UHGV virus genome: UHGV-0308808
Reading direction: 5' to 3' (one strand)
Source: a virus
Length of the DNA stretch: 44,982 bases
Every line of letters begins with the position of its first letter. Within the stretch, counting starts at the first letter, position 1. This document shows, piece after piece, positions 9,292 to 41,396 of the stretch. Below the pieces are notes generated by a model that saw only the letters and a list, made by a program, of their open reading frames with translations, was not told where the DNA came from and made no database searches. Both the position numbers and the translations under genes were made by a program.

Positions 9292-9365
9292 AATCTACTG
9301 AATAGAGTGTCCTAGAGTTAAATAAGACTTGGCAGTCGGTCTAGGATGCTCTCTTGAGTAGATTA
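9292..9365 (+). repeat. 74-bp direct repeat, copy 1. It is internally an imperfect hairpin (ATCTACTGAATAGAGTGTCCTAG ... CTAGGATGCTCTCTTGAGTAGAT).
   Basis: 72/74 identical to 11478-11551. Confidence 0.8.
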
Positions 9366-9391
9366 CTCAAATACTAAAAAGGTGGTGTCTT

Positions 9392-9637: not shown

Positions 9638-9668
9638 ATAGTATTATATTTCTTTAAGTGGAGGATAT

Positions 9669-10031
9669 ATGAAAAAAAATAGAAATAAAAATAGAGAGCT
9701 ATTAATTTTAGGTAGAACTAAAAAAATAGTTTTAAAAAATAGCATTTCTTTTTTAAATGAAGTAAAAGAGGATAAGAGAAAATTTTATAATAGAAAAAAT
9801 ACAGAAACATTTTGGGATTTTCAAATAGCAGTAGCTAGGTGTCTAATAATTTACAAAAAAAGAATAATAAAACATAAATATTCCTGTATTTCTAAAAAAC
9901 GTATAAAGAAACAAAAGGGAATAAAATTAAAAAATAATTATTATTCTACTCAAGCTAAATTAACAAGTTTTTATATAAGCAGAGTTATGAACTTTATTAA
10001 CCAAAATTCACAAGGAGTTTATTATGAATAA
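9669..10031 (+). CDS. hypothetical lysine-rich protein
   Basis: 120-aa ORF. The RBS GGAGGA lies upstream. Confidence 0.35.
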   Translation: MKKNRNKNRELLILGRTKKIVLKNSISFLNEVKEDKRKFYNRKNTETFWDFQIAVARCLIIYKKRIIKHKYSCISKKRIKKQKGIKLKNNYYSTQAKLTSFYISRVMNFINQNSQGVYYE

Positions 10032-10264
10032 AGATTACTTGAATTATTTTATTTTTACTACATTTGAGCAAATTATTTACCAAATAATAGTTGTTATTAT
10101 CCTTGATTATTTATTATCAAAAAAATAAACCTTGCTCAATTAGCAAAGTTTATTCAATTTATTATTATTTTTGTATATTTTTACTCAATTGTATCCTTAT
10201 TAACTTATTTTGGAATTTTTATACTTGCATTTCTTAGCCATAATTATAGCTAAGAAATGAATGC

Positions 10265-11437
10265 TTAATCTTTATTTTCGGAAATATTTAGAATTACTTT
10301 AGCTTTATTTTTTTGTAAATCAATTTTATATTTTCCCATAAGAATAGAAGCCTTATAGTTTTTAGAATTAACAAAATTATCATAAAGAAAATTTAATTTA
10401 CTTAATATTGTACTATTTATTCTGAGGAAATTACATTCTGGATCCAAAACAAGAAAAGCTCTACTCATATCAGATAAGAATTTTTCATAATTTTCATCTG
10501 TATTATCTTCTGATACTATTGTAACTTTTGATAAATTTTGACTTTTAATATCAAAAGTATACTTAACATAATTTTTTTGTTTTGCTGGGATTATAAAATC
10601 AACAGTTGTTTTATTAACTTTTTCTAAATAATCCGCATTATCTATATCTCCCATACTTAAACGAGAATAATTTAATCTTTCTGGAAATTGTTTAATTGAA
10701 ATACTAAATGGATATATGTCATCTATCTCCTTTATTTTCAAGTCTGATAATGAGATATCTCCTGCTATATATTTTTCTATTTGAGATAACTGGTTTTCAT
10801 CAAAGTTTAAATTGTTTGAATAAAATGCGACATTAGAAATCTTACTATCATTTTCTTCTAAATAAAGAGTTCCAAAAGTTTGATTTCTATTATTGACAAT
10901 ATAATAAATATAAGTATTATCCTTTTTTTCTGAAGGATTTCCTAATTTAGAAAATATCTCATTTAATGAAGTTCCAACTTTTATTGGAGTTATATTTGAA
11001 ATTTGATTAATACCTAATTTACCAATAATATTTTTACTCAAAGTTAAATTATAATATTTCATTTGAGGATATAGAGCTTGAATTTCAAAATCATTTTTTC
11101 CTAATTTATTAATATTGTAATACAACTGAAAATTATTAGCATCTTTCTCAGGTCTTTTTTGAGTAAATGGAAATTTGAATGTAAAAAAATAATTTTCATA
11201 GTCTGGATTCTTCATAATTAAGTCTTCTGCAATATTTTTTAATTGCTCTTCTGTAGGAAGATTATTTTCAAATAGATTTAGAGAAACTATACCTTGTAAT
11301 TTTACTGAATTAGCTCTTTCCTGATAATAGTCATATGGAATAACTATTTTAGTATCAGGTACTTGAGATTTTTTCTCTTCATCTCCACATCCTAATAATA
11401 AACAAATAAAACAAATAAACAACGCGATTTTTTTCAT
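10265..11437 (-). CDS. lipoprotein (lipobox LLGCG), moron-like
   Basis: The N-terminus MKKIALFICFICLLLGCGDE is a signal peptide with a lipobox Cys. The gene is flanked by the 74-bp direct repeats. Confidence 0.6.
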   Translation of the reverse strand: MKKIALFICFICLLLGCGDEEKKSQVPDTKIVIPYDYYQERANSVKLQGIVSLNLFENNLPTEEQLKNIAEDLIMKNPDYENYFFTFKFPFTQKRPEKDANNFQLYYNINKLGKNDFEIQALYPQMKYYNLTLSKNIIGKLGINQISNITPIKVGTSLNEIFSKLGNPSEKKDNTYIYYIVNNRNQTFGTLYLEENDSKISNVAFYSNNLNFDENQLSQIEKYIAGDISLSDLKIKEIDDIYPFSISIKQFPERLNYSRLSMGDIDNADYLEKVNKTTVDFIIPAKQKNYVKYTFDIKSQNLSKVTIVSEDNTDENYEKFLSDMSRAFLVLDPECNFLRINSTILSKLNFLYDNFVNSKNYKASILMGKYKIDLQKNKAKVILNISENKD

Positions 11438-14501: not shown

Positions 14502-14810
14502 ATGCTATTTAGAGATTTGTTTGAGAAATATAAAGATAAAATAATTGATTTCAAAGTTTTTCATCCTGCTTTTTATTTTCATGAGTATGATGTTGCAGAT
14601 AAATTTTTATTACAGATATTCAGTGAAAGTTCGATGCCAAGTTTGGCATTTGATAACACTATCTTTCTTCTAGAAAATGAAGATTTAGTAATAGAAGAAA
14701 CAGAATCTGAAAGAAAAATAAAAAGAGGAAAAGAATATGTAGAAATGATATTTAGAATTAGCCAAGATAGAAGAGTGAAGGTACAGTTGGAGGGAGATAT
14801 AAATGAGTAG
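14502..14810 (+). CDS. hypothetical protein
   Basis: 102 aa. The RBS GGAGGGGAG lies upstream. Confidence 0.4.
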   Translation: MLFRDLFEKYKDKIIDFKVFHPAFYFHEYDVADKFLLQIFSESSMPSLAFDNTIFLLENEDLVIEETESERKIKRGKEYVEMIFRISQDRRVKVQLEGDINE

Positions 14811-15495
14811 AGTGGTTCTAATCAAAGCAAATAAAGGAGGAGTTGGAAAATCTTGGATAACTCTTCAGTTAGCACATAAAGCTGCTCTTGATGGAAATAA
14901 AGTTATAATAATTACTTCTGATAGTCAAAATAATATTTTGGATTTTAGTGGGAATGGTAGTCTTACTCCACTAGGGTTAGATGAATGGCTTAAAAGTGGT
15001 AATGGTGGGTTCACAGAGTTAAGAAAAAACCTTTATTATATCCCATTTCACTCGGCTGTACTTCCAGAGGAATTAGAAGTAAGATTTGAGAGTTTTATCA
15101 ATGTTTTAAAAGGAGAGTTTGATTATATCTTCATTGATTCTACACCTGTGTTGAACTTGGATAAAAAATTTATAGACTTAGCAGATGAAGTAGTTATCCC
15201 AACTTTCCTTGATCAAGTAACTTTAGGTTCTATAATTACTTTAATGGAGCAAATAAGTCCTAAAAGTAAAGTTAAAGCTATTATTCCAAATCGTACTGGG
15301 AGAACCAAGCTTGAGAGAGAGTACTATGATAATTTAAAGAAGATTGTTTCTCAAAATATTTTACTTTCTGTTCCTATAAAACAAAGTTCTTTCATTTCAA
15401 AAGCTATTGATGAAGGAAAAACAATTTGGGAATACAGAGCAAAAGATGCTGTGACACTTCAAGAATTATTTTTACAGGTTCTGGAGGTGTTATGA
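14803..15495 (+). CDS. parA: ParA/MinD-family partition ATPase
   Basis: The deviant Walker A KGGVGKS appears in the sequence LIKANKGGVGKSWITLQLA. Length is 230 aa. Confidence 0.8.
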   Translation: MSRVVLIKANKGGVGKSWITLQLAHKAALDGNKVIIITSDSQNNILDFSGNGSLTPLGLDEWLKSGNGGFTELRKNLYYIPFHSAVLPEELEVRFESFINVLKGEFDYIFIDSTPVLNLDKKFIDLADEVVIPTFLDQVTLGSIITLMEQISPKSKVKAIIPNRTGRTKLEREYYDNLKKIVSQNILLSVPIKQSSFISKAIDEGKTIWEYRAKDAVTLQELFLQVLEVL

Positions 15496-18690: not shown

Positions 18691-19224
18691 ATGGAGTTTA
18701 TAACTAAATTAAAATTAGAGGATAAGGTTGTGGTCACAGATCCTTGCTACTGTTACGAACCACAAAGAGGGATAGTACTTTTGAATATCCAAGCTGGAGA
18801 ATATAAATGTTGTGTTATTTATAATAAAGAAAACAGAGTAAAAGAAGCAATAATTTTACATGAAAGCTTATCAATTTATGAGCAAGAAGGTTATTTGTGG
18901 TTACAGGATGGCTTCATTTATGTTGATGCTGCCATAGCTGGAGTGATTAATTATAGCTTACATGAAGAGATGAGAAGATGTAAAAATAGGAATGAAAAAA
19001 AATGGGAAGATAAATATTATAGAGAAATATGCGAGTTATTCTCCCAAGATACCGATGCTATATGTTTTAGAGAAAACTCTTTCATTACTAGTACTGGATG
19101 GGGTGATGGAAGATATGAAGTTTATGTTACTAAGAACAATAATAAAATCCTTGGTATAAAAATAATCTATGACGAGGATGAAGAAGAGTTTGAAGATGAC
19201 TGGGAAGATGAAGAAGAATACTAA
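18691..19224 (+). CDS. hypothetical protein with an acidic C-terminal tail (DEDEEEFEDDWEDEEEY)
   Basis: 177-aa ORF driven by promoter-leader copy A. Confidence 0.45.
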   Translation: MEFITKLKLEDKVVVTDPCYCYEPQRGIVLLNIQAGEYKCCVIYNKENRVKEAIILHESLSIYEQEGYLWLQDGFIYVDAAIAGVINYSLHEEMRRCKNRNEKKWEDKYYREICELFSQDTDAICFRENSFITSTGWGDGRYEVYVTKNNNKILGIKIIYDEDEEEFEDDWEDEEEY

Positions 19225-19375: not shown

Positions 19376-20809
19376 ATGTCGAATAGTTCTTCTTTTCCTG
19401 CTAAAATTTCAGCTATTTATTGCAGGGAAAGCACAGAAAAGCAAAATATACAAAGTCTTATAGATATGTGTAAAAAAGCTGCTAAAAAAATAAATCTTCA
19501 AAATATAAAAGTTTATTATGATGTAGCATCTGGGTACAATAAAGACAGAGAACAATATAGTAAATTAAAAGAAGATATCCAAAATAATTTAGTTGATACT
19601 TTAGTATTGTATGAAAGTTCTAGGCTTACAAGAGATGAATTGGAGCATCATATATTTTATGGATTATTAAGAGTTCATAATGTTAAAGTTTATACTGTTA
19701 CACATGGTTGGTTAGACTTACAAGATGCTGATGATACCTTTCTGACTAATCTTTTAAATTTATTAGATGCTAGAGAGGGAAGGAAAACAGCTAAAAGAAG
19801 TAAGGACAGAATGACTGAATTAGCAGAGCAAGGGAGATGGACTGGAGGACCAGCTCCCTTGGGATATAAATTAGTTAATAAAGAGCTGGTAATAGTTCCA
19901 GAGGATGCAGAAAAGGTTAAAACTATTTTTAAACTTTTTCTTGATGGAAAAACCAGACAATCCATTGCTAATTTTTTTGGATATGAAGTAAAAAAGGTTA
20001 GAAGATTATTAGAAAATCCCGTCTACATTGGAAAATTAAAATTCCATTCTGTTGAAATAATTAATAAGAAAAAAATTCTTCATAAAGATTATAAAGTGTT
20101 GAATGGGATCCATGAGCCTATTATAGATGAAAGTACTTTTTCCCTGGTACAAGGTAAATTAAAAAATATTAAGGTTGAAAGAAATACAGATGTATATATC
20201 TTTAAAGATTTAATAAAATGTACTTGTGGAAGAAAGATGTATCGGGTTGTAAATAAATATAATTATTTAAAAAAATCAACCAATGAAATTTCTAGAAAAA
20301 CAGAGAACCTATATTATTGTAGAACTTCTGATAAATATAAAAGTCTTGGGTGTGGTGCTATTGGTATTCATGAAGAAGAGTTATTTGAAGAAGTTATGGC
20401 TTCTTTAAAAAAAATTATTTTTTCTTTAGAAGTAGAGAACATTGATACCAAATTTGATGATTATCAATCTCAATTAGTTCTTTATAAAAAAGAGTTGGCT
20501 TCTCTCTCTGGAAAAGAAGAACTCCTAGCCAGGCAGTTATTAAACTCTCTTATATCTGAGGAAGTTTTCGAAAAGTTAATGAAAGAGTTAAAAGAAAAAA
20601 AGGCGTTCCTGGAGGAAAAAATCAAAAATTTAACTACATTAATTACTAATAAAAAAAATACTAATAAAAATTCAGAGATATTAAAAAAATATTTTTTTAA
20701 ATTAGAAAAGGAAAAAGCTCCAGAAAAAATAAATAATTTTTTAAAACTTATAATAGATGAAATCGAAATGGTAAATGATTATAGATTCTACATCCATTTA
20801 AAATTTTAG
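19376..20809 (+). CDS. large serine recombinase (resolvase/invertase catalytic domain, recombinase domain and zinc ribbon)
   Basis: The N-terminus has AIYCRESTEKQ, the serine-recombinase catalytic motif. C-terminal Cys clusters are CTCGRKMY and YYCRTSDKYKSLGC. Length is 477 aa. Confidence 0.8.
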   Translation: MSNSSSFPAKISAIYCRESTEKQNIQSLIDMCKKAAKKINLQNIKVYYDVASGYNKDREQYSKLKEDIQNNLVDTLVLYESSRLTRDELEHHIFYGLLRVHNVKVYTVTHGWLDLQDADDTFLTNLLNLLDAREGRKTAKRSKDRMTELAEQGRWTGGPAPLGYKLVNKELVIVPEDAEKVKTIFKLFLDGKTRQSIANFFGYEVKKVRRLLENPVYIGKLKFHSVEIINKKKILHKDYKVLNGIHEPIIDESTFSLVQGKLKNIKVERNTDVYIFKDLIKCTCGRKMYRVVNKYNYLKKSTNEISRKTENLYYCRTSDKYKSLGCGAIGIHEEELFEEVMASLKKIIFSLEVENIDTKFDDYQSQLVLYKKELASLSGKEELLARQLLNSLISEEVFEKLMKELKEKKAFLEEKIKNLTTLITNKKNTNKNSEILKKYFFKLEKEKAPEKINNFLKLIIDEIEMVNDYRFYIHLKF

Positions 20810-20817: not shown

Positions 20818-21381
20818 ATGTTAATAATAAAAGAGAAAATTTTGGAAAAATATTCAATTTTGGAATTAAAAAAGATCTTTGGAAGTTGGTTCTTATATTT
20901 TAAAAGAAGTGATTTTAAAGGCGAGCTGTATAATATAACCTCTTATTTAACTATAAATAATTTGGATTATTCTCTTGAAGAATTTAAGAAAGATTATCCC
21001 AAATTATCAAATAATAAAGAGATAGCAACTATCTTTAAATTATATAAAAGCGGGTTTTCACTTCGTACCTGGGGTATTAAATTCAATAAAGATATTAATC
21101 ATTTAAAAAAACAATTGAAGGATGGTTATATTTACAACTCAACATCTATACCTAAAGAGTTTTTAAAATATGTAGATATAGCTATTGATACTTCAGATTT
21201 CAAAATAGAGTTATATAAAAAGCATATAGAACTCTATGGAGAAAAAGAAAAACTTGAAGCTTTTAGAAGAACATACTCTTTAAAAGAAAGAGTATATTTT
21301 GAAAAATATAAAAATTCTTATCACCTAGCTTTCAAAGGCTTCTTAGCTGATTATATTTCTTATAAAGAAAGAGAGGAATAA
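20818..21381 (+). CDS. hypothetical protein
   Basis: 187 aa. RBS is AGGAG. Confidence 0.4.
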   Translation: MLIIKEKILEKYSILELKKIFGSWFLYFKRSDFKGELYNITSYLTINNLDYSLEEFKKDYPKLSNNKEIATIFKLYKSGFSLRTWGIKFNKDINHLKKQLKDGYIYNSTSIPKEFLKYVDIAIDTSDFKIELYKKHIELYGEKEKLEAFRRTYSLKERVYFEKYKNSYHLAFKGFLADYISYKEREE

Positions 21382-21405
21382 TTTAATTATCCTCTCTTTT
21401 CTTTA
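21369..21405 (+). terminator. stem-loop AAGAGAGGA...TCCTCTCTT followed by a T-rich tract
   Basis: 9-bp stem spanning the stop codon of 20818..21381. Confidence 0.45.
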
Positions 21406-21583
21406 TGTTTTATTCGTTTGTATTTTCGGTTTTTTTCTTGCGGAAAAGACCAATTCCATCTCCAAATGGTTGCTGGTTTAATAAAAAAATAAATATATCT
21501 ATGCCCCCAGCATTTCTCCTTTATTACTAATTATAGCATTTCTAATTTTAATAAACAATATTTTTCTAATTTCCTTAGAAATG

Positions 21584-24139: not shown

Positions 24140-24673
24140 TTATAAACTTTTTACTATGTCTGCTATCTTATTGATTTCAACTTCTAGTTCTTGCATCTTT
24201 TCTATAATTAGTTGTATTTCCTCTTGAGTACTAAATTTAGAATTTTCCAAAGCTTTTTTATTCTCCTCAAGCTTTGAATATTCCAGTATCTTATCAGCTC
24301 TCATTTTAACAAACTCATCATGTGTAGTTCCTTCATACCAGATATGATTTTCTTTATCCCAAGCCTTTTTGTAATATCCTAATTTCTCATCATACTCAAC
24401 TTTAATAAGCTTTCCATTTTCTATATATTCTCCATCATCAAGAACTATAATTCCCTCTATTTTTAGTTCTTCTTGAGTTTTTTCTCTAATCAAATTAGTT
24501 TCTTTATCTATAATAGGATATTGTAATTTATCTTTAGAAGCATACATTCCCTCTTCATTCCAAATTGGATAAAACTCTTGAGGATTCTCTATAAACTCTT
24601 CATAATTAGTAACATATGGTTGCCCTATTAGTTCAAGTTCTTTGTTGTAAATGTAAACTATTATATTCTCCAT
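24140..24673 (-). CDS. hypothetical protein
   Basis: 177-aa ORF between the recombinase and the lysis genes. Confidence 0.4.
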   Translation of the reverse strand: MENIIVYIYNKELELIGQPYVTNYEEFIENPQEFYPIWNEEGMYASKDKLQYPIIDKETNLIREKTQEELKIEGIIVLDDGEYIENGKLIKVEYDEKLGYYKKAWDKENHIWYEGTTHDEFVKMRADKILEYSKLEENKKALENSKFSTQEEIQLIIEKMQELEVEINKIADIVKSL

Positions 24674-24920
24674 GATTTTCTCCTTTTTTTCTTATTTTAT
24701 GTGTAAATTATTGAATTTCATCAAAGATTAAAAAAATTTAAAATGTAAAACTCTTTATAAAATATAGATTTCTAAACTTTCGAAATAAATTAGCAAATAC
24801 TTTTTGAAGTAGAAGTAATTTTTATTAAAAAATATAGAAAGCTAAGTAAAATAAGACTTTTTAATCTTTAAAAAATTTTAGTTTATGCATAAATTCAATA
24901 ATTTATTCAAATTTTTAGGC

Positions 24921-25880
24921 TTAAATTAGCCCTTTTTCTCTCTTTAATTGCCTAATTTTTTCTCTATTTTCTGCCCCTGTTTTTGCTTTAATATAATGCT
25001 CTCTAGTAGTATTTATATTATTATGATTAGCAAATTCAGAAGCTGTATTTATATCTGCTATATTCTTTAAAAGGTTTATAGCTGTTTTTCTGAGAGTATG
25101 AGGGTATAACTTATCATTTCCTAATAACTCTCCTATCTTTTTTATTCTACTTCTAATAGTAGATTGAGCCATCTGTCTACATTGTCCACCTTCCTTTGTT
25201 ATAAATAAATAATCTGATACTAAATTATTCTCTTTTCTATACTCTAGCCATTCTTGTAACACCTTTTCAGTATTATCAAGAAAAATTACATCAACTATCT
25301 TATTACCTTTTTCTTTTACATCTTTAAAATACCCCTCTTTTAAGTTTAATTGTGAAAGTTTTAAATTTTGTATTGCTGAAATTCTATTAGCACTTTCTAG
25401 GAATAATTCCCAAAGTAATCTAGATTGAATATCAAATTTCTTTGAATTATGTTGCATAAGTATTCTAGCTTTGATTATGTCCTCTATTGTAAGATAATAG
25501 CTTTCTCTTCTCTTATCAAAACTACCTTTTTTTAACCTATCTAATTTATGCTGAAATGGATGATGAGATATTAAATCTCTTTTCACACACCAGATATAGA
25601 ATGAAGAGATAGCTGTAAGCTTGTTATTTATTGTCTGATTATTGTTACCAGCTTCCCTACAATGATTTATATACCTCTCTAAAATAGAGACACAATTTTT
25701 TATTGTACTATCGCTTAATAATAGTCTATTCCCTTCATATTTCTGTAAATACTTCATATACTGTTTCATATTACTCTTATAAACTCTATAAGTAGTATTT
25801 AAAGTTTCATAGTTCCTTGCTTTGTTACTCTCTAAATACATTTGATAAACTTCCATATTAGCTTTGTTAAATTTTTCCAT
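24921..25880 (-). CDS. tyrosine site-specific recombinase, proposed shufflon recombinase (Rci-like role). The start is re-assigned to ATG 25880 (MEKFNK), preceded by AGGAGGA.
   Basis: Catalytic residues are conserved: the Arg in ESANRIS, the His/Arg in HTLRKTAIN, and the Tyr in REHY. The gene sits immediately next to the half-site at 25934-25947. Confidence 0.75.
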   Translation of the reverse strand: MEKFNKANMEVYQMYLESNKARNYETLNTTYRVYKSNMKQYMKYLQKYEGNRLLLSDSTIKNCVSILERYINHCREAGNNNQTINNKLTAISSFYIWCVKRDLISHHPFQHKLDRLKKGSFDKRRESYYLTIEDIIKARILMQHNSKKFDIQSRLLWELFLESANRISAIQNLKLSQLNLKEGYFKDVKEKGNKIVDVIFLDNTEKVLQEWLEYRKENNLVSDYLFITKEGGQCRQMAQSTIRSRIKKIGELLGNDKLYPHTLRKTAINLLKNIADINTASEFANHNNINTTREHYIKAKTGAENREKIRQLKREKGLI

Positions 25881-25933
25881 TTTGTTAAAATCCTCCTGTA
25901 ATTTAATTTTGACACTATATTGTATCAAATTTT

Positions 25934-25947
25934 AAATTACAGAATTT
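25934..25947 (+). repeat. crossover site 1 (boundary half-site, AAATTACAGAATTT on the plus strand)
   Basis: Read directly. The left arm is degenerate. Confidence 0.8.
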
Positions 25948-26245
25948 CATTATATCTAGTGGTTCTAACACTAATGGATATTATAGAAAATATTCAGATG
26001 GATTTATAGAACAATTTGGTACTTTTAATTTTAGTGGTGGAACTAATGCTTCTATTAAAAGAACTTTACCTATAAGTATGAAAACTACAAATTATATTAT
26101 AGTATGTAATCCTAATTTTGCTTTAGAGCGAAACTCAGCCGCTTGGGGTATTGTTAATCCTACAGCTAAAACAACTACAACAATAACTTTTAAAAAAGCT
26201 CATTCAGAAACTACAGATGTTTACTGGTATGTATGTGGATATTAA
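25934..26245 (+). other. silent fiber C-terminal cassette D (+), 103 aa: KLQNFIISSGSNTNGYYRKYSDGF...VYWYVCGY
   Basis: In-frame from site 1, with no start codon or RBS. Confidence 0.7.
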
Positions 26246-26550
26246 GTACCTAAAGTTCTCCAATAAATTTTATTCCCTCTTTCAGCTTGAACTTTAAAAT
26301 TATTTAATGTAATACTATGTATTAGAAATTCTGCTGATTCAGTCCAAAATTCTGTATTTCCTCTGTTTGTAGCACTAATATTATAATTAATATTAGTATA
26401 TTTTATAGGAAGAGTAATTAAAGTTGCACGAGTTCCACCATTAGGATATGATACAATACCACCTTGTTCAATTATTCCATTAGAATATTTTATATAATAT
26501 GTTCCATCACTATTAAACTTCATATCAAGTATCTGAGGTAAATTCTGTAA
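26242..26550 (-). other. silent cassette E (-), 102 aa: LQNLPQILDMKFNSDGTYYIKYSNGIIEQGG...WRTLGT. It is convergent with D.
   Basis: In-frame from the minus-strand arm of site 2. It includes track ORF 26242..26523. Confidence 0.7.
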
Positions 26551-26561
26551 TTACAGAATTT
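26540..26561. repeat. crossover site 2, perfect 22-bp palindrome AAATTCTGTAATTACAGAATTT
   Basis: Read directly. Confidence 0.85.
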
Positions 26562-26823
26562 CATTAATGTTGGAACAAGTTATTGTTATATAGGAGGTAT
26601 CTTAATCCAATGGGGAACATTAAGCGGATTGAAAGCTAGTACTACTATTTACCAAACTTTTCCTAAAGCATTTAAAAATACTAATTATTCTGTTGTATAT
26701 CAAAAAATTAGTGCTGACCACAGCAATAATACTCCTATGAAAACTTCTGTAAAAGAAACAACTAGATTTGGAGTATATTCTTATGGAGTTTCTAGTGTAG
26801 ACTGGTTAGCAATAGGGGTTTAA
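26551..26823 (+). other. silent cassette F (+), 90 aa: LQNFINVGTSYCYIGGILIQWG...VDWLAIGV
   Basis: In-frame from site 2. It includes track ORF 26629..26823. The codon before the L codon is TAA. Confidence 0.7.
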
Positions 26824-27062
26824 TATCCGATTGCTAACCAAGGAATAGATCTTGGCTTCGAACTAGCTCCAAAGTTCATATCATTAAAATAAAAATATTC
26901 ATTAGTCCAACTTATAGTAGGATTAGCACCAGCAGTAACAATTGTAAAACAGGTATTAAATTTCACTGGAAAAGTTACTTTACTAGAACCAGATTTACCC
27001 CACTGTAATAACAGTTTTCCAATATAACAATAATTACTGTTCATTGTAGTTAAATTCTGTAA
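26820..27062 (-). other. silent cassette G (-), 80 aa: LQNLTTMNSNYCYIGKLLLQWG...IPWLAIGY
   Basis: In-frame from site 3. It includes track ORF 26820..27044. It is convergent with F, with the stops overlapping. Confidence 0.7.
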
Positions 27063-27073
27063 TTACAGAATTT
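27052..27073. repeat. crossover site 3, perfect 22-bp palindrome
   Basis: Read directly. Confidence 0.85.
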
Positions 27074-27353
27074 AAATAATAATTTTTATGAATACTATCC
27101 TAACACAAGAGAATTTAATATTCCTATAGAATTTAACAATGCTTTAATTTCAGTATGGACTTACAATACAACTACTGCTAGTATGGAAGATACTCCAATG
27201 TATCTTTTTACTTTTTTAGTAAAAGATATTGATGTTTTTAAATTCTATAATGGTGTTAGTGGTGGATATGCTTCAATTGATTATAATAATAAAAAATTAA
27301 TTAGTTCATCTATTCATTACATAAGAAAGATAAATATTTTTATATTTAATTAA
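27063..27353 (+). other. silent cassette H (+), 96 aa: LQNLNNNFYEYYPNTREF...IRKINIFIFN
   Basis: In-frame from site 3. Confidence 0.65.
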
Positions 27354-27357
27354 ATAT

Positions 27358-27627
27358 TTAAATACCAATAGCTATCCAGTCAAAACTCATTGTTCCAGAA
27401 ACTCCACCAACGTCTTGAGAATAATATGTAAAATAAGTAGAAGTAACATTAGTTACTTGTAATATATTATCTATGTTTGAAGGTTTTTCTGTCCTTAAAC
27501 TTTGGGAAGTTAAGACTACAATATTTTTTTTAATAAAAGGAGATGAAAATATAAGTTTTCCAGTTTTAGCATTTGTTATATTTTCTAATCTACCTATTTT
27601 TATTTCAATACCAAGTAAATTCTGTAA
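27358..27627 (-). other. silent cassette I (-), 89 aa: LQNLLGIEIKIGRLENITNAK...MSFDWIAIGI
   Basis: In-frame from site 4, convergent with H. Confidence 0.65.
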
Positions 27628-27638
27628 TTACAGAATTT
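27617..27638. repeat. crossover site 4, perfect 22-bp palindrome
   Basis: Read directly. Confidence 0.85.
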
Positions 27639-27927
27639 AGGCGATATCAATAAAAATACAATAGGACATTTTACGGATATAACAGGAATTAAATTTTGTT
27701 GGGGAACAACAGGAACATTATCTGCCTCAAGTAATACTTTAATAACTTTTTCAGAGGCATTTAAAGAAAAAGTTTTTTCTATTCAAGCTACAATATTATC
27801 TAATTCAGGAATAGCAGGAAATAAGTCAGATTATGTTTTTGTAAACTCCATAACTTTATCTAATTTTAAATTAAAAATTGGTTCTGATTATGGATTTGCA
27901 GTATCTTGGTTAGCAATAGGCTATTAA
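27628..27927 (+). other. silent cassette J (+), 99 aa: LQNLGDINKNTIGHFTDITGIKFCWGTTG...FAVSWLAIGY
   Basis: In-frame from site 4. Confidence 0.7.
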
Positions 27928-28178
27928 ATTCCAATTGCTAGCCAAGGAATTTTTACACTATTAGGTTTCCCAGATACTCCCCAGTTTGTATCGTTAAAAT
28001 TAAAACTAGTTAAAGTCCATGAAATAGTTGGAGTATTACCAGATGTTATAACAGTAAAAACTGAACTTTTAAAAGGAATAGGAAAACTTTTACTTCCAGT
28101 TGTTGTAGCTCCAGTTTGAATAATAAGTCCATTGGTAAATTGGATATATTTACCAATGGAGTTAGAATTTAATACCTG
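27924..28178 (-). other. orphan cassette C (-), 84 aa: TGLNSNSIGKYIQFTNGLIIQTG...KIPWLAIGI. It is homologous to cassette G but lacks its own crossover site, and begins 1 nt after the cassette B stop in the +1 frame.
   Basis: Manual translation. It shares SK.FP.PF and TPTISWT motifs with G. Confidence 0.5.
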
Positions 28179-28512
28179 TTATTTTAAAGATAGATGAACC
28201 ACCATCTTTACCAAAAATATAAAAGGATTGTTTATTAGCTAAAAATCTATAATCAAGACTCCCACCTTTTGGTAATAAATATCTATCTCCAATTTGATTA
28301 TCACTAGTACCATCAGAATATTTTAAATCAGTTACTAAAATAAATTGACTTTCTTCATCTACTTGTCTTGTTCCAGTCCAATTGCCATAAGTAATTATAA
28401 TAGCATCAAAGTTAGTAAGTGGTTTATTTAAATTCAATACAGTATTATTTGGAGATTGTGAAGTTGTATTATATAAAATTTCTATTTTAAATGTAGATAA
28501 ATTCTGTAATTT
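28162..28512 (-). other. silent cassette B (-), 116 aa: KLQNLSTFKIEILYNTTSQSPNNTVLNLNKPLTNFD...ITGIKF. It lies directly 3' of the fiber stop, in the same orientation.
   Basis: In-frame from site 5. It includes track ORF 28162..28437. Confidence 0.65.
28499..28512 (-). repeat. crossover site 5 (half-site AAATTACAGAATTT on the minus strand), immediately after the fiber stop codon
   Basis: Read directly. Confidence 0.8.
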
Positions 28513-30498
28513 TTATATATATGGGAAAAAGGTTATAGATTGAGAGTCATACCCTCCTGCACAATAGATTACGTCTTCTTTCTTTACGGGATATATTAAT
28601 CTAGTAGCAGAACTATCTCTTGTTCTATAATCTAGATTAGTACCATTTATCCTTATTGTAGTAGTTATATCATTTGAACCATAGAAGTGTATCTGAATAA
28701 TTCCATCTTGAAGTATTGTGTTATTTTTACTCCAATTTAATTTTTGTCCTTTTGAATAGTCAGGAGTTCTATTGAAATTCTGTAATTTACCCAATAAATC
28801 ATTATTAGATATTGCTTCAAAGTAATTTGCGTCTGCATAGTTTATACTTGTAGCTTTTATACATTTGTAAACTTTTTTTGTGGTACTATCATAATAGGCA
28901 TAGTTTACTGTCTTTGCACTAGAAGTATTAAGACTTCCTCCGTATGTAAGTCCTAATATCTCGGCTAATTTAGCTCCTTCTAATACTGTATTTGAAGTAG
29001 TTCCAAAATTTTTATTAAAAGCTCCATTTTTTTTGAAGGCTGGTTCTGCTCCTATTCCACTAGCTGTAATATTAATACTTTTAGCTGCTGCTCCATCATA
29101 GCTCACTGGATTTTGTCCATTCATCTTTATTTCAAGAGCATTAGGATTTTTCATACTTGTTGGAAAATCTGTAATATTTGCTTTTGTATGAGTATGACTA
29201 GAATCAGCAGCTCCTATGCTAGCTGGAGTAATATTAATATTTTTAGTAGCTGCTCCATCATATGTATAAGCAGTTCCACTATTTAATTGAATAGATAAGG
29301 CATAAGGATTTTTCATACTAGCAGGAAAGTCTGTGATATTTGCTTTTGTATGAGTATGACTGCTTGGAGTAAAAGAATTAGGTTTTCCTGTAATATCACT
29401 CCAAGTAATATTTGTCCATTGAGCAGCTCCAGATGATAACCATTTTAGAAAATTTCCACTAACCCCATTTGCAGGTATATGATTATTTCCATTCCCAGTA
29501 GGATGAGTATATTCAGGAGTTCCATGTAATGTTCCATCTTCATCAACTGTTAAATTATTCCCTACCTTTATTCTTCCTAATTGTGTTTTAGTTGCTTTTT
29601 TTACTAGCTCATTATAAAGTTCATTAATGGCTCCAACTATTGTTTTTACCACGGTTTTTAGAGTGCTATCTTCTTTATTTTGTTTAGTTTCATTTAAAAT
29701 TTTTCCTTGTTTACCTGAAAGAGCTTTTGTAGTACTATCAGTTGTAAGATTATCTACTACATTTAATTGAATATCATTATCATTAACAATAATACCATCA
29801 TTTTTAGATACAATAGAGGTCCTTCCAGAACTATCAACAGTTAATCCTTTACCTATAATTATTCTTCCTAATATAGTTTTTGATGCTATTTTAGAAATTT
29901 CTGTTAATAAGTTCTGTGCAGTACCAGTATAACCACCTTTATCTAATTTATTAGTAAAAAGTTCATTTATTGCTTCCCAAACAATTTTGGCAGCTGTCAA
30001 TAATCTATTTTCATGTAAATTTTGTTTTTTAGCCAATTCTTTATCTAAATATTCTTTATCTACCCATAATTCTTTTCCTGTCCAGTTAACTATTGTAGTT
30101 TCATTATTAGTAGCCATTATATTAACATAATATCTAAATTTGATTGGTGTCTTGCTTGCTGGCGGCATCCAGGTAGCTTCATCACCTTCATTTATATACC
30201 AGTACAGAATTTCTTCTTCTTCATCTAATGCGTATATTCCTATTTCTCTTGGAAAGTATCCAGTTTCAATATCTTCATTACTAAATAGTACAGTTAATTT
30301 CAAATTATTTTCTATTTGTTTTTTTTCTAATATTTCAACTTCTTGTTTTATTGCTTTTATATTAGTAAATGTGCTAGGATCCTCATCATCTGATATTTTT
30401 CCATCTCCTATTTTTACTTTAACTAATTTTATTCCTTCTCCTGTTGCTTGGCATTTTGCTAAATATTCGCTCCCTCTCTTTGTAATACCATCAAACAT
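28513..30498 (-). CDS. tail fiber protein. The currently expressed variable C-terminus (cassette A) runs 28513-28788.
   Basis: 661 aa, Ser/Thr/Gly/Asn-rich. It contains internal near-repeats HTHTKANITDFP[AT]SMKNP. It lies downstream of the baseplate genes and is followed by the shufflon. Confidence 0.75.
   Translation of the reverse strand: MFDGITKRGSEYLAKCQATGEGIKLVKVKIGDGKISDDEDPSTFTNIKAIKQEVEILEKKQIENNLKLTVLFSNEDIETGYFPREIGIYALDEEEEILYWYINEGDEATWMPPASKTPIKFRYYVNIMATNNETTIVNWTGKELWVDKEYLDKELAKKQNLHENRLLTAAKIVWEAINELFTNKLDKGGYTGTAQNLLTEISKIASKTILGRIIIGKGLTVDSSGRTSIVSKNDGIIVNDNDIQLNVVDNLTTDSTTKALSGKQGKILNETKQNKEDSTLKTVVKTIVGAINELYNELVKKATKTQLGRIKVGNNLTVDEDGTLHGTPEYTHPTGNGNNHIPANGVSGNFLKWLSSGAAQWTNITWSDITGKPNSFTPSSHTHTKANITDFPASMKNPYALSIQLNSGTAYTYDGAATKNINITPASIGAADSSHTHTKANITDFPTSMKNPNALEIKMNGQNPVSYDGAAAKSINITASGIGAEPAFKKNGAFNKNFGTTSNTVLEGAKLAEILGLTYGGSLNTSSAKTVNYAYYDSTTKKVYKCIKATSINYADANYFEAISNNDLLGKLQNFNRTPDYSKGQKLNWSKNNTILQDGIIQIHFYGSNDITTTIRINGTNLDYRTRDSSATRLIYPVKKEDVIYCAGGYDSQSITFFPYI
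28775..28788 (-). repeat. crossover site 6 (half-site), inside the fiber gene, encoding KLQNF at the constant/variable boundary
   Basis: Minus-strand reading gives ggt AAA TTA CAG AAT TTc, translating GKLQNF. Confidence 0.8.
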
Positions 30499-37775: not shown

Positions 37776-37813
37776 TTACTCATTTCTGAATAAGTGGCTT
37801 TTGATACCTAATT

Positions 37814-38152
37814 TTAAATTATTTTTGATAGTATACATCCAATTATTATGGATAGAATCAATGTAATAACTACCCAATAAAAAGTTCCTATTATAGCTAG
37901 AATAATGCAAATCAAAACAGCTACAACCCAAAATATTTTTGGAATAAATACTATAAATTTCTCAAGAAGTGTCAATTTAACTTTTTTATTTCCAGCTAAG
38001 TATTCATCAATTCTTTTAGAGGATTCATAGGTTTCCTTTTCTATTCTGTCTTTAGCTTTGGCAGAGTTTTCCTTATATTCCAAAGAAATTTGTTTTATAT
38101 CTGTTTTTACTCTTCTCCATTCTTCTTTTAAGCTATTTACCATACCATCCAC
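37814..38152 (-). CDS. membrane protein (N-terminal coiled coil, C-terminal TM helices)
   Basis: 112-aa ORF between the chaperone and the tape measure gene. Confidence 0.35.
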   Translation of the reverse strand: MDGMVNSLKEEWRRVKTDIKQISLEYKENSAKAKDRIEKETYESSKRIDEYLAGNKKVKLTLLEKFIVFIPKIFWVVAVLICIILAIIGTFYWVVITLILSIIIGCILSKII

Positions 38153-38267
38153 CTCTTACTATGATTATACTGTATAAACATAATAAGAGCAACCACTTAT
38201 TTATTTTTTTCATCTAGTATTTCATTAATAGTTTCTAGCCATTCAGCCCACTCATAAACTGGGAGAT

Positions 38268-38651
38268 CTAGCCAATATTCGAGGCTTGTTCTTGTTTCTT
38301 TAGCGATAATAACTCCGACTTTTCTGATATCAGATCCGTTAAGATTTCCCAGTCCAAGCCATCTAAGAAACCCTTGACTACCCCCACAATTTTTAAGAAG
38401 TCATCTCCAGGTAATCCTGATAACTCATTATATCTACACCCTATTATTCTAGCTGCTATATATCCTTGATAAGATTTTAAATTTTCAAATGGGACATTAC
38501 CAGGAAGTCCAAGTCCTTCATTCAATAAGAATTCTCTTTCTGCTTCTAATACGGCTCTTGCAGTAAAATTCTCTTTAGTTATATTTACTTCCTCTATTCT
38601 TTTCTCTGAACCATCAAAATTTTTAATAATAATTGGTTTACTTAATTTCAT
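38268..38651 (-). CDS. tail assembly chaperone-like protein
   Basis: 127 aa, between the tube and tape measure genes (the gpE/gpG position). Confidence 0.35.
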   Translation of the reverse strand: MKLSKPIIIKNFDGSEKRIEEVNITKENFTARAVLEAEREFLLNEGLGLPGNVPFENLKSYQGYIAARIIGCRYNELSGLPGDDFLKIVGVVKGFLDGLDWEILTDLISEKSELLSLKKQEQASNIG

Positions 38652-38660
38652 TTGTCCCCC

Positions 38661-39179
38661 TTACATTCCCATAGCAGCTTTTATATCCGCTAAATAATCT
38701 ACTCCATTTATTTTGCAAATCATATTTAATTTATCTATTTCAAGTACTTCTTTTCCATCATACTCAATTTTTAAATAATCAACAGCAAATTCTTTTTTAC
38801 TATCCATAGCTTTTCCAACTGATACCTTTCCTAAAGACATTGTTTTTGGAATCCCTCTTGCAAAAACACTTAATCTTCCTTGCTCAATTTTCCCAGCTGT
38901 CTTATCTAAAGATTGTATTCCAGCTTTTATTTCTAGGTTATAAGCTCTTGGTTGAAGAAGTGTAAAATCTTCTCCTATCAAAGCCCTTATATTCAATCCT
39001 AAAGTTAAAGGAGAGGTATGTCCTGCAGTTATTGATTCAATCTCTCCTGCAATTCCAGCTCCTGAAATTGTTTCTGTCATAAATTGTAACTCTGGTAGAT
39101 CAACATCTACTAAAGCAGTTTGTGTTCTACTACCATCAGTATATAGCATATAGTTACTTAGTTTTTCTGGTATAAGCAT
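38661..39179 (-). CDS. tail tube protein
   Basis: 172 aa, immediately downstream of the sheath gene. Confidence 0.6.
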   Translation of the reverse strand: MLIPEKLSNYMLYTDGSRTQTALVDVDLPELQFMTETISGAGIAGEIESITAGHTSPLTLGLNIRALIGEDFTLLQPRAYNLEIKAGIQSLDKTAGKIEQGRLSVFARGIPKTMSLGKVSVGKAMDSKKEFAVDYLKIEYDGKEVLEIDKLNMICKINGVDYLADIKAAMGM

Positions 39180-39203
39180 TATTTATCACTCCTCAAATTG
39201 TTT

Positions 39204-40622
39204 TTAAGCTGAAAATAGATTATTATAATAGTTTGTATCTATTTCACAATCAAACTCAGCATATTCCATAGGTAATGCTGGACTAAAATAAATTTTAAAT
39301 TTTACTTTTCCATCTAATAATGATGTTATAGGGTTATCCTCTTCTCTGAACTCTATTCTTCCACCTATTAGCATTCCAGAGGCTTGTAAACCATTCAACC
39401 ATATATTTATACTATCTTTAAAGTTCTTTATGAGATTATTATTTGTAGGTTTATCTATTTTATCCCAGAAGTTTGTAATTAAAGTATTATTCAAGAAATT
39501 AAACATCATTCTTGAAGCTATAAAATTATCTTTAGCATCCATCACTGCTGGATAGCATCCTGTTCTATTCCCCCAAGCTTTCCATCCACCTATCCAGTTA
39601 ATAACTGTTCCTATTCCATTACCATTAAGATAATTTGCCTGATTAATAGCTAATAAAACATCTGTGCCATTTGCTAGACAAGTTCTATCAGCTTTTATAT
39701 TAATATTTGATGGAGAACGATAAGGTACACCATTAGACTCAGATGCTAATTGTTGAATTAAACAAGCTATTTGAGTAGAAATATGGTATTGTAATTCACC
39801 AAGTGCCACTTTAGGATAATATACTGCTAAATTAGTTGAACTTAGATTATTAGTTTCTTTAGTAGCAGGAGCTTCTGTATATTTAGTAATTGTTTTAGTG
39901 TCTATATCTACTAAAGCCAATGCTTTAAAATGTCCATTTATCAATTTCGCTTTTGTTTCCATGACAGCAGCAACTGTGCTATCAGTAGAATATTTTGGAG
40001 CTAGTACTAAGTTTGGAACTAATCTAGTTACTGGGAATACATCTTCTATACATTCCAATCCTTTATTTCTACCTGTTCCTGCATCTATTCCCCCAATGAT
40101 ATCATCAGCTTCTATCATGCTTGGGTCTAATTTATCAAAAGCTATTTGAATATTATTTCCTTCTGGCAATTCTTCAGCAGTTATTATTAAGTCAACATAT
40201 CCATCATCATCAAAAGTTGCTATAAACTCCTTTTCTGGAGTTAATTGGATAGTTTCTTTTATAATCCCTAGTTCTTTTATTTTTATAGTTTTATCCTCTC
40301 CAATTGGTACACTATCTTGAGTTACACTTTTCTTATGTGTTCCAGGGTCAAGGACATTTATAAGTACAATAGGTGCTACTCCAAATTTGCTAAAATGTGC
40401 ATCTATGGCTTCACACAAAGTGTAATTCTCAAAGTCTTTTACATATCCAAATGCAGCTATTGCTTCAGCATAAGTATTACATAAAACTACTTTATTTATA
40501 TTTTTTTCTTCACATAAATTTATAGGAGCTGTTCCTACATAAACAGGTGTTATCCCATCAACTTTTATTGCTGTTATAGCTGTAGGTGTCTCTGTAGTTC
40601 CTATTCCATGTTTAAATGCCAT
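39204..40622 (-). CDS. tail sheath protein
   Basis: 472 aa. The N-terminus is MAFKHGIGTTE. Confidence 0.75.
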   Translation of the reverse strand: MAFKHGIGTTETPTAITAIKVDGITPVYVGTAPINLCEEKNINKVVLCNTYAEAIAAFGYVKDFENYTLCEAIDAHFSKFGVAPIVLINVLDPGTHKKSVTQDSVPIGEDKTIKIKELGIIKETIQLTPEKEFIATFDDDGYVDLIITAEELPEGNNIQIAFDKLDPSMIEADDIIGGIDAGTGRNKGLECIEDVFPVTRLVPNLVLAPKYSTDSTVAAVMETKAKLINGHFKALALVDIDTKTITKYTEAPATKETNNLSSTNLAVYYPKVALGELQYHISTQIACLIQQLASESNGVPYRSPSNINIKADRTCLANGTDVLLAINQANYLNGNGIGTVINWIGGWKAWGNRTGCYPAVMDAKDNFIASRMMFNFLNNTLITNFWDKIDKPTNNNLIKNFKDSINIWLNGLQASGMLIGGRIEFREEDNPITSLLDGKVKFKIYFSPALPMEYAEFDCEIDTNYYNNLFSA

Positions 40623-40939
40623 TATTTACCTCCTATTTGTTTTAACACTTGACTATATAAGATATTTTCCTTTGTTCCTTTTTGTGCAAATCTTTCTTTT
40701 ACTTTTGGAAAATTTTTATCTATTTTCACAAACAAATTATCTAGTCCTTTAATTTCTGAGATAGCATTTTTTACATTTGAATGCTCTCCCTCGTATATTT
40801 GTCCTGTAATAAGTCCATATTTTTTTAAATTTGGACCCAAATACATCTTTTTTTCAGCTTTTTTTATTACTTTTTTCTCTTCGCTTTTAGTTGTCTTATT
40901 CGCCATTTTTCCCCCAATCTTTTCCGTATATAAAATCAT
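40622..40939 (-). CDS. hypothetical lysine-rich protein. The start is probably the internal ATG (MANKTTK) near 40906.
   Basis: The ORF overlaps the upstream gene if started at 40939. Confidence 0.3.
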   Translation of the reverse strand: MILYTEKIGGKMANKTTKSEEKKVIKKAEKKMYLGPNLKKYGLITGQIYEGEHSNVKNAISEIKGLDNLFVKIDKNFPKVKERFAQKGTKENILYSQVLKQIGGK

Positions 40940-41396
40940 CTACATCTGTTCTGTAAATATTCTTTGTAACTATATGGAAATTTAAGTTTCCTGCCCAGAA
41001 TGGATACATTTCTTCATCAGAAATATTCCATTCATATGTTGGTAATATTTCAAACTCTTGTAGAATTACTCCTTTTTCTATAATAGCAGTAGATATTTTA
41101 TCTATGATTTCATATATTGTTTTATATGCTGTACTAGTTTCAGTTTCATAGATAACTACACTTACAGTTAGTGTTAGTAATTTTTCTAAGAGAGTATTTT
41201 TCCCATTAGGAGTTTTTATAATAACACAAGGGATAATATTTTGTAGTACTTCTCTTGGCTGATTTCCAATAATCACAATCGGAGCTCTTGGCTCACTTTC
41301 ATTTTCACTTTCTGGATGTACATTTAATTTATATTCTTTGGTATTCTCTTTTATTATTGCTTTTAATTCCTCTTCTAAGTCAAATATCTTCATCAT
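40896..41396 (-). CDS. hypothetical head-tail/tail completion protein
   Basis: 166 aa, at the gpU-equivalent position. Confidence 0.35.
   Translation of the reverse strand: MMKIFDLEEELKAIIKENTKEYKLNVHPESENESEPRAPIVIIGNQPREVLQNIIPCVIIKTPNGKNTLLEKLLTLTVSVVIYETETSTAYKTIYEIIDKISTAIIEKGVILQEFEILPTYEWNISDEEMYPFWAGNLNFHIVTKNIYRTDVDDFIYGKDWGKNGE

Follow-up and report, generated by a model that had tools for sequence, protein, structure and literature searches.

The closest described counterpart of the locus examined here is the Rin system, in which an armless tyrosine invertase acts on a phage receptor-binding-protein shufflon and the phage carries a separate integrase; it was reported from Bifidobacterium prophages in 2018 and later from Eggerthella (PMC6109161, PMC8778435). 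Programmed inversions in tail-fibre genes have also been widely predicted (PMC9881135). No description of a shufflon in Fusobacterium phages was found in the searchable literature. In this work, we analysed UHGV virus genome UHGV-0308808, a stretch of 44,982 nucleotides (nt) which we will call the window, and concentrated on its two recombinase genes: a tyrosine recombinase gene adjoining a tail-fibre gene with alternative ends, and a large serine recombinase gene in the early region. A preceding reading of the letters alone (hereafter the sequence-only reading) had assigned the tyrosine enzyme to a shufflon and the serine enzyme to integration or resolution. The finding proved real and this interpretation essentially right, both halves of the proposed division of labour being supported. 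With high probability, the window represents the circular form of a temperate myovirus of about 45 kb from a Fusobacteriaceae host, in which two site-specific recombinases serve two tasks: the tyrosine recombinase is most likely a dedicated tail-fibre invertase, judging from the loci compared below, and the serine recombinase most probably the phage integrase.

The tyrosine recombinase, a putative tail-fibre invertase of 319 amino acids (aa), is encoded at positions 24921-25880 of the minus strand. The longest open reading frame (ORF) at this place (24921-25928, minus strand) would give 335 aa from a TTG start. The ATG at 25880 (MEKFNK), which the sequence-only reading had chosen for its ribosome-binding site (RBS), is indeed preceded by GGAGG 11 nt upstream, and the same 319-aa start was picked by gene callers on at least ten public contigs. 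Pfam assigned Phage_integrase (8e-26) and SAM-like core-binding domains to the product, the domains covering residues 28-126 and 157-315 of the 335-aa ORF, i.e. 12-110 and 141-299 of the 319-aa protein. With the core-binding domain preceded by only about 11 residues, there is no room for an arm-binding domain. The RHRY catalytic residues recognised earlier were confirmed as part of a set of six (R166, K191, H261, R264, H286 and Y296), which was invariant in an alignment of 19 family sequences reaching down to 38% identity.

Upstream of this gene, the 13-mer AAATTCTGTAATT occurs in nine exact copies, all within 25935-28787. When one mismatch was tolerated, the core matched at 10 places, with an expectation of 0.73; in 100 shuffles, the count never rose to 10. 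The copies are distributed over sites S1 to S6. S1 (25935-25947, minus strand), the recombinase-proximal half-site, consists of the core AAATTCTGTAATT and a degenerate second arm, and lies 55 nt upstream of the start codon; the tyrosine gene does abut the first site, as had been stated. S2 (26540-26561), S3 (27052-27073) and S4 (27617-27638) are perfect 22-bp palindromic double sites, S2 reading AAATTCTGTAATTACAGAATTT with two cores back to back. S5 (28499-28511, plus strand) is again a half-site, in direct orientation with S6 (28775-28787, plus strand), which lies inside the tail-fibre ORF at the junction of its constant and variable parts and encodes KLQNF. Like S1, both S5 and S6 are asymmetric, with one conserved and one degenerate arm.

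Behind each of the nine cores, an in-frame ORF of 80-115 codons runs up to a stop codon. Segment A (25937-26550) comprises two convergent silent cassettes of 102 aa each (25937-26245, plus strand; 26242-26550, minus strand), which are in frame with the site as LQN[FL]. Convergent cassettes also make up segment B (26551-27062), with 90 aa (26551-26823, plus) and 80 aa (26820-27062, minus), and segment C (27063-27627), with 96 aa (27063-27353, plus) and 89 aa (27358-27627, minus). Segment D (27628-28509) contains a plus-strand cassette of 99 aa (27628-27927), an orphan (about 27924-28160, minus) and a minus-strand cassette of 115 aa (28162-28509). Segment E (28513-28785, minus strand) is the presently expressed C-terminal cassette of 90 aa. 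In this configuration, the tail-fibre gene (28513-30498, minus strand; Pfam Phage_fiber_rpt) encodes 661 aa, its constant part occupying 28788-30498, and it lies downstream of Baseplate_J and Tail_P2_I genes. Six of the nine cassettes and the orphan matched Gp53-like_C, a tail-fibre tip family which Pfam describes as a putative tail-fibre C-terminal domain, the weakest match falling 1.4 bits under the Pfam cut-off; both cassettes of segment A, both of segment B and the plus-strand cassette of segment D are among them. The minus-strand cassette of segment C, the weakest of the six, scored just under the cut-offs for H_lectin (23.8 vs 24 bits) and for Gp53-like_C (23.5 vs 24.9 bits). Since all nine cassettes are in frame behind their cores, nine fibre tips are possible, and the constant part of the fibre can, as far as the sequence tells, be fused to each of them.

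Two further observations concern this region. The orphan in segment D is a tenth cassette of Gp53-like_C type, whose upstream site has decayed (about 28159-28180) with only AAATTCT left; because its own recombination site has been lost, it is probably no longer expressible. Besides, the constant region of the fibre varies in length between otherwise near-identical phages, at 29134-29361. One of the public contigs or loci compared with the window (these are labelled L004, L005 and so on up to L081), namely L007, carries one extra repeat unit of 162 nt (54 aa), giving 715 vs 661 aa with the same cassette arrangement, and L004 and L005 show the same duplicated alignment in the constant region as L007. 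The variable-copy repeat was not detected by TRF.

In its organization the locus is of Rin type: an armless tyrosine recombinase gene adjoins a variable locus in which repeats in both orientations stand between in-frame cassettes. As in Rin, the phage recombinase gene lies beside alternative C-terminal cassettes of a receptor-binding or tail-fibre gene, the cassettes are set apart by short crossover repeats, and an integration enzyme of its own is encoded elsewhere in the prophage; this likeness is one of layout. The differences are the following. The host phylum is Fusobacteriota, whereas that of Rin is Actinomycetota. Cassettes are here mostly present as convergent pairs joined by 22-bp palindromic double sites, while in Rin they stand in tandem with an asymmetric 11-bp rix site each. 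The partner enzyme is a large serine recombinase (or a Mu-type transposase in the related phage phiRTG5) instead of the lambda-type tyrosine integrase accompanying Rin. Finally, the present locus has a further small invertible element behind the recombinase gene, and deletion derivatives are evident. The core system is therefore of an already known type, and what is new with respect to Rin is the palindromic double-site architecture and the conserved second invertible element.

We then compared the tyrosine enzyme with characterised recombinases. By BLASTP, it matched XerD (4e-13), FimE (8e-6) and FimB (5e-5), with Rci at E = 2.1 and no match to Cre or to lambda Int (for the latter, none at E <= 10). 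Matches in the Protein Data Bank (PDB) were XerA and XerD. The best NCBIfam matches were XerC (97 bits, cutoff 335), XerA (94 bits, cutoff 220) and XerD (82 bits, cutoff 330), all of them far under the cutoffs. Rci, taken from the R64 record NC_005014, was aligned to the enzyme by hhalign with a probability of 62% and E = 7e-5, over 109 columns of the catalytic core only. No IncI plasmid occurred among 300 plasmid hits. Among the 55 phage records matched, Bifidobacterium was not one of the ten commonest of 15 organism names. In a neighbour-joining tree, Rci and lambda Int paired together (92% bootstrap) and the family of the window enzyme stood separately. The phylogeny that had been suggested as a check thus placed this family apart from both Rci and phage integrases, and the combination of an integrase cluster with an att site of its own, which would speak for an integrase, did not emerge. 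According to these comparisons, the enzyme belongs to a Xer/Fim-like clade of its own and is neither Rci-like nor lambda-Int-like.

It had also been proposed that the gene occupies the rci position of a shufflon. This stands as an analogy of place and falls as homology, because the relation to Rci is limited to the catalytic fold. The analogy with Rci of R64 and other IncI1 plasmids, which varies the tip adhesin PilV (gene pilV), is nevertheless extensive: multiple inversion is driven by a tyrosine recombinase whose gene lies at the far end from the constant region, alternative C-termini are convergent, and terminal sites have one conserved and one degenerate arm. S1, S5 and S6 fit the asymmetric sfx type of site used by Rci, whereas S2, S3 and S4 are perfect palindromes. 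The two systems also differ in target, which is a phage tail fibre here and a pilus adhesin in R64, in the lack of an Rci relative here, and in the fully palindromic internal sites and common deletion derivatives of the present locus. A different kind of analogy is offered by Gin of the Mu G segment, Cin of the P1 C segment and Min of p15B. There, too, inversion swaps tail-fibre C-termini, presumably with an effect on host range, and the invertase gene directly follows the fibre region; the phiRTG5 arrangement is even found in a Mu-type transposable phage. Gin, Cin and Min are small serine recombinases, whereas the enzyme here is a tyrosine recombinase and the sole serine recombinase is the integrase. 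Invertases of the Gin type require Fis together with an enhancer, and their 26-bp sites have a 2-bp crossover. The present system is analogous, not homologous, to both the Rci/R64 and the Gin/Cin/Min systems.

The relationship to XerC, XerA and XerD, the nearest characterised relatives, raises the question whether the tyrosine enzyme might additionally or instead be a Xer-like dimer resolvase that uses the palindromic sites. Perfect 22-bp palindromes do resemble dif-type sites, the phage has a ParA-like gene, and more distant homologues of the enzyme are encoded by the large plasmid-prophages phiCD211, c-st and Sundance. Such a role, which would be compatible with that of an invertase, appears improbable to us. 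All nine sites are in frame within fibre cassettes, the prophage is integrated in many assemblies, the NCBIfam scores are far short of those of true Xer proteins (97 vs 335 bits), and the conserved place of the gene is after the fibre gene, not by the replication or partition module.

Whether the sites recombine in nature was judged from contigs retrieved by exact look-up of the 319-aa protein. Beside the identical recombinase, 100% identical segments were found in six arrangements: i) constant part-E-D-C-B-A-recombinase in the window, L007, L013 and L021, ii) segment A inverted in L010, iii) constant part-A'-B'-recombinase, with the B-A block inverted and C, D and E lost, in L004, a long-read-polished contig of 2.78 Mb, iv) constant part-D-A-recombinase in L005, v) constant part-D-E-C-recombinase in L006, and vi) segment E inverted and adjoining the recombinase gene in L009. 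All breakpoints fell at the 13-nt sites. S1 was involved in L004, L006, L009 and L010, S2 in L005, S3 in L004 and L006, S4 in L005 and L006, and S6 in L004, L005 and L006, with a deletion between S5 and S6 in L005. In both L005 and L006, the constant part was joined to segment D, and segment E was relocated in L006. Deletions of segments are to be expected, because palindromic internal sites can align in either orientation. Excision with reinsertion was considered for the order D-E-C of L006 and dropped as unneeded, since by reasoning alone three inversions and one deletion suffice if sites are palindromic.

Similar events were seen beyond the identical recombinase. In a clade whose enzyme is 74% identical to that of the window, the site is AAATTCTCTAAT. 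Two records of one genome (L028 and L029) had 100% identical flanks and differed by inversion of the whole shufflon of 2,277 bp. The core motif was confined to the shufflon zone in 27 loci and was present at no prophage-host junction examined. From the comparison of these sequences, natural rearrangement at the sites is evident. As the evidence is comparative, one could still invoke host homologous recombination or assembly artefacts at short repeats; short-read assemblers do mis-join at repeats, and several contigs break at sites, L010 starting exactly at one. We regard this explanation as very unlikely. The repeats measure 13-22 bp, yet every breakpoint lies on them, including those of the long-read-polished L004, the layout recurs with clade-specific sites in dozens of independent loci, nine of nine cassettes are in frame, and a dedicated recombinase gene is always adjacent.

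We infer that the tyrosine enzyme performs these inversions from its adjacency, the conserved layout, the co-variation of sites with recombinase clades and the independence from the mode of integration. The tyrosine gene always adjoins the shufflon. In 46 of 52 IMG/VR loci from clades of 48-55% identity (mostly the Funu1 clade), one site preceded the recombinase start by 54-80 nt and a copy of opposite orientation stood in the fibre gene, with extra back-to-back site pairs where more segments were present. Site density in these clades reached 1.54 per kb in the 2 kb upstream of the recombinase, compared with 0.10 per kb elsewhere. These clade-specific counts replaced a generic statistic, a 13-mer inverted repeat with up to one mismatch, which was non-discriminating in AT-rich DNA (50 of 54 upstream regions vs 42 of 56 controls). 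The site sequence itself changes with the recombinase clade, from AAATTCTGTAATT to AAATTCTCTAAT, GGAAAATYT and, in phiRTG5, ATTGAATAATCT. Homologues of 46-55% identity keep the order of fibre, cassettes and recombinase whatever their integration machinery. Funu1 has a serine-recombinase remnant at the prophage end, 25% identical to the enzyme of the window, and phiRTG5 has Mu-type transposase A and B genes; in both, the tyrosine enzyme is encoded directly after the fibre cassettes.

Based on these observations, the following mechanism can be proposed. The tyrosine enzyme would act at short sites made of one conserved arm and a crossover region (AAATTCTGTAATT). Recombination of S6 with any oppositely oriented site would invert the DNA in between and join the constant N-terminal 570 residues to one of nine tips of 80-115 residues. 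The exchange of tips would presumably change receptor specificity, and with it possibly host range. Palindromic internal sites would allow the same chemistry to delete segments as well.

The identical 319-aa protein is encoded on many contigs, and in L006, L009, L011 and L012 the identical recombinase, cassettes and the following 177-aa gene (or its N-terminal part) are found in other genomic contexts. These include a Mu_Gp48-type baseplate module, and the neighbouring host genes are those of a nucleoside transporter and peptidase S13, of fucose utilisation and of an opine-type metallophore locus. The recombinase/cassette module thus appears to be exchanged between prophages. The description of the L006-type backbone as Mu-like was abandoned, as its baseplate genes lack similarity to phiRTG5; it can only be called a different backbone with a Mu_Gp48-type baseplate protein.

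As for integration, the second enzyme is a large serine recombinase and putative integrase of 477 aa (19376-20809, plus strand) with Resolvase, Recombinase and Zn_ribbon_recom domains. It matched PHROG 95 'integrase' at 2e-75, and its motif YCRESTEKQ (R-E-S19-T) contains the presumed catalytic serine S19; a sequence search of the PDB returned no solved structure at E <= 1e-5. It had been described as the only other recombinase, and no other recombinase or transposase family occurred among the PHROG hits and the Pfam hits for the larger called genes, a scan that did not extend to small ORFs or to the genes for head and tail (about 37800-44900). The gene is followed by an ORF of 187 aa (20818-21381, plus strand), which lies between it and attP and is always co-located with it. 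This ORF had no family match in Pfam, PHROG or NCBIfam, and its product is possibly an accessory or directionality factor.

The attachment site was recovered from prophage-host junctions. In nine contigs with an identical serine recombinase (L014-L020, L022, L023), host genes were found 29 nt after the 187-aa gene, namely those of an S-adenosylmethionine (SAM) methyltransferase, rsmB and mgtE, and the junction was the same in nine of nine despite mosaic early regions. Four of these contigs were aligned to the window, and homology ended at 21466. The other prophage end was represented by L004, L005 and L010, found via the tyrosine recombinase, where homology ended at 21444 and different host genes followed; L010 and L015 come from the same sample. 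Alignment of attP, attL, attR and attB gave a common core of 14 bp, ATTCCATCTCCAAA, located in the window at 21453-21466, 72 nt past the two-gene recombinase operon. The core is flanked by GACCA and TGGTTG in attP, and by TAGTCCT and AGGAAGAAG in attB, which contains TAGTCCTATTCCATCTCCAAAAGGAAGAAG. The reconstructed attB of 36 nt was uninterrupted, i.e. empty, in Fusobacterium sp. MAG069, at the 3' end of the orthologous methyltransferase ORF by rsmB. The comparison of these sequences fixes the position of attP.

By integration, the host gene for the SAM-dependent methyltransferase is split in its 3' end. On the phage side, the arm of attP (21410-21466, minus frame) encodes the same C-terminal residues, FGDGIGLFRKK, followed by KTENTNE, so that the interrupted gene is restored and its frame kept open. 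The serine recombinase would recombine attP with attB in the methyltransferase 3' end, the phage supplying the replacement C-terminal codons. Of the two roles left to this enzyme by the sequence-only reading, integrase or dimer resolvase, the former is upheld by the recovery of attP, attL, attR and attB, and a mere resolvase can be set aside. A plasmid-prophage with the serine enzyme as its resolvase, at which ParA-like and ParB-domain genes hinted, was likewise rejected, as host-flanked integrated forms are common. The expectation of an imperfect palindrome serving as attP within 21400-21540 was right as to place and wrong as to symmetry: the best dyad matched 10-11 of 20 positions at attP and attB, against a background mean of 11.1. 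It was comparative junction mapping that identified attP, not the palindrome criterion.

In domain architecture (Resolvase, Recombinase, zinc ribbon), in the simple attP beside the gene and in the use of a specific host gene, the enzyme resembles the integrases of phiC31, Bxb1, A118 and TP901-1. An identity of 14 bp between attP and attB is at the long end for the large serine integrase class. The present system differs from these integrases in this long identity and in that no directionality factor was identified here.

If the serine recombinase integrates the phage, could it also be responsible for inversion at the fibre locus, in the manner of Gin (Mu), Cin (P1) and Min (p15B)? The invertases classically known from phage tail-fibre genes belong to the serine recombinases (PMC6109161), and a secondary PHROG match of the enzyme reads 'DNA invertase'. 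This possibility is hardly credible, given that the protein has 477 aa with Recombinase and zinc-ribbon domains and is not a small invertase of about 190 aa. Its gene adjoins attP and is separated by about 5 kb from S1, the nearest shufflon site, and no small serine recombinase (about 190 aa) was found in or near the shufflon. Moreover, the module also occurs with an unrelated serine recombinase (Funu1, 25%) and in phiRTG5, which has a Mu-type transposase and no annotated serine recombinase, and the site sequence co-varies with the tyrosine clade. The reverse assignment, in which the tyrosine recombinase would be the phage integrase and the serine recombinase a resolvase or something else, can draw on the Pfam family name Phage_integrase, the 'integrase' labels in GenBank, a 14-bp attP/attB core that would suit a tyrosine integrase also and the closeness of the gene to host-like DNA in L009, L011 and L012, but it is very improbable, since attP lies about 3.5 kb from the tyrosine gene and only 72 nt past the serine recombinase operon, the att core resembles neither the shufflon core nor the nine flanking sites, no shufflon-type core occurs at any junction, the identical enzyme is found in elements at other chromosomal loci and the family in a Mu-type transposable phage, and the protein has neither an arm-binding domain nor similarity to lambda Int.

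The dedicated invertase appears to have a further substrate. A second invertible element (24704-24903), not noticed in the sequence-only reading, was found downstream of the tyrosine gene. Its core of about 170 bp (24719-24888) is bounded by perfect 15-nt inverted repeats at 24704-24718 (TAAATTATTGAATTT) and 24889-24903, and the element follows the stop codon of the recombinase gene, ending 16 nt before the RBS of the gene that comes next. Of the 13 positions of the shufflon core, 11 are shared by the repeat AAATTCAATAATT. Nine loci carry the element in the orientation of the window, and it is inverted in L010, L012, L024 and L025, its core being 100% identical in the inverted L010 and L024. 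Between L028 and L029, a counterpart of 168 bp was inverted too. In the whole family, 48 of 78 loci, and only one control region, had a perfect inverted repeat (12 nt or longer) that starts 7-16 nt behind the stop codon and has its arms 135-190 nt apart. The element repeat of the Funu1 clade, AGATTTTYAAATTTAT, shares AGATTTTC with the shufflon site of that clade, and the well conserved inner sequence occurs in one orientation in 23 loci and in the other in 15 (11 of the 15 being clear-cut). Most likely, the second element is flipped by the same tyrosine enzyme.

Promoter and terminator scans around S1 and in the small element, run on the window and on Funu1-clade sequences of either orientation, gave nothing above shuffled controls. 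In L081 of the Funu1 clade (about 6990-7090), the small element has a core that forms a nearly perfect palindrome with a stem of 40 nt. In other loci, the two halves of the core are related but distinct, each with a TTTGAG...TATAAT/TATAAA-like sequence.

The closest parallel to this part of the locus is the fim system of Escherichia coli, whose tyrosine recombinases FimB and FimE are likewise small and armless and resemble the window enzyme weakly by BLASTP. The order of fimE, fimS and fimA corresponds to that found here, i.e. a recombinase gene, a short invertible element flanked by inverted repeats and the RBS of the next gene. On the other hand, the element has about 170 bp vs 314 bp for fimS, no promoter is demonstrated in it, it is borne by a phage, and the same enzyme probably also serves a shufflon of coding sequences. 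The gene directly downstream of the small element (24140-24673, minus strand) encodes 177 aa and accompanies the recombinase gene in every context. Its product belongs to a Fusobacteriaceae family in which several members of about 250 aa carry DUF4376. The counterpart in phiRTG5 had weak PHROG matches to tail, tail fibre and tail fibre assembly families, and the 177-aa protein is possibly related to the tail fibre.

We can speculate that one tyrosine invertase operates two coupled switches, one on each side of its own gene: the tip shufflon and, opposite to it, a fimS-like on/off element for the next gene or a feedback on recombinase expression, the whole module being mobile between unrelated backbones. 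This is a tentative proposal, which we consider less likely than not. If it were true, Fusobacteriaceae phages would phase-vary their receptor-binding tip together with a second tail or lysis function, as the next gene may be of DUF4376 type and related to tail-fibre assembly, with lysis genes behind it. Cassettes, invertase and switch would then move as a unit between backbones that integrate by serine recombinase, Mu-type backbones and others.

Several points weigh against the division of labour as we describe it. The matching of enzyme to site is inferential. Inversions were deduced wholly from the comparison of assemblies, a kind of evidence that does not extend to rates or to heterogeneity within populations. 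Palindromic internal sites predict frequent deletion, despite which the cassette repertoire is maintained. The 14-bp identity of attP and attB fits either class of recombinase, and attP has no dyad symmetry above background. In L006, L009, L011 and L012, the tyrosine recombinase gene lies 1-3 kb from host-like DNA, and integration machinery is not visible there. Finally, no promoter or terminator in the small element scored above chance.

The assignment of the tyrosine enzyme to inversion has practical consequences for annotation. It had been predicted that automatic annotation would label it the phage integrase, and the GenBank records of Funu1 and phiRTG5 already do so for its homologues. 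Pipelines that equate PF00589 with integrase mislabel this enzyme family, and inferences on phage integration are distorted as a result. Phage shufflons served by tyrosine invertases are extended from Actinomycetota to Fusobacteriota, a phylum that includes Fusobacterium species, whose phages are of therapeutic interest. With up to nine fibre tips, the host range of such phages may be broader or shifting. The large serine recombinase comes with a defined attP/attB pair from a genetically difficult and very AT-rich group, and the conserved second element offers a compact, testable candidate for a phage-borne fim-like switch.

The genome as a whole has 28% G+C and the full gene set of a temperate myovirus. 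Named relatives come from Fusobacterium and Cetobacterium. Genes for the portal and the large and small terminase (36-3969, minus strand) lie at the start of the window; the head-to-tail morphogenesis operon runs from its other end down to the tail fibre, the recombinase gene and lysis genes, and the early/replication operon is on the plus strand with the serine recombinase gene as its last one. Most likely, the window is a metagenome-derived phage genome, circularly closed, in excised or replicating form. This follows from three observations: an open head-gene frame at the right end is followed, across the end/start junction (44828-44982 / 1-35), by the portal 3' end in another frame; the length of 44,982 equals 45,123 - 141, i.e. 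that of a k141 MEGAHIT contig of 45,123 bp (L008/L021) less its terminal overlap of 141 bp; and this circular contig keeps the gene order of the window and is 100% identical to it across the 19.6 kb compared.

Some neighbouring genes may be mentioned finally. A ParB-like nuclease domain fused to a DNA methyltransferase is encoded at 4857-6176 (minus strand), here in an integrating phage, and a ParA-like ATPase, whose gene is shared with Funu1, in the replication module at 14803-15495 (plus strand). The region beside the repressor (8230-11437) is a variable slot, occupied in the window by the gene of a 390-aa protein without family match and in the relatives L014-L023 by SWIM or DUF2321 genes. 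Another variable slot lies upstream of the serine recombinase gene (18691-19224), where the window has DUF4241 and the same relatives have HicAB and a Bro-N/ANT protein.

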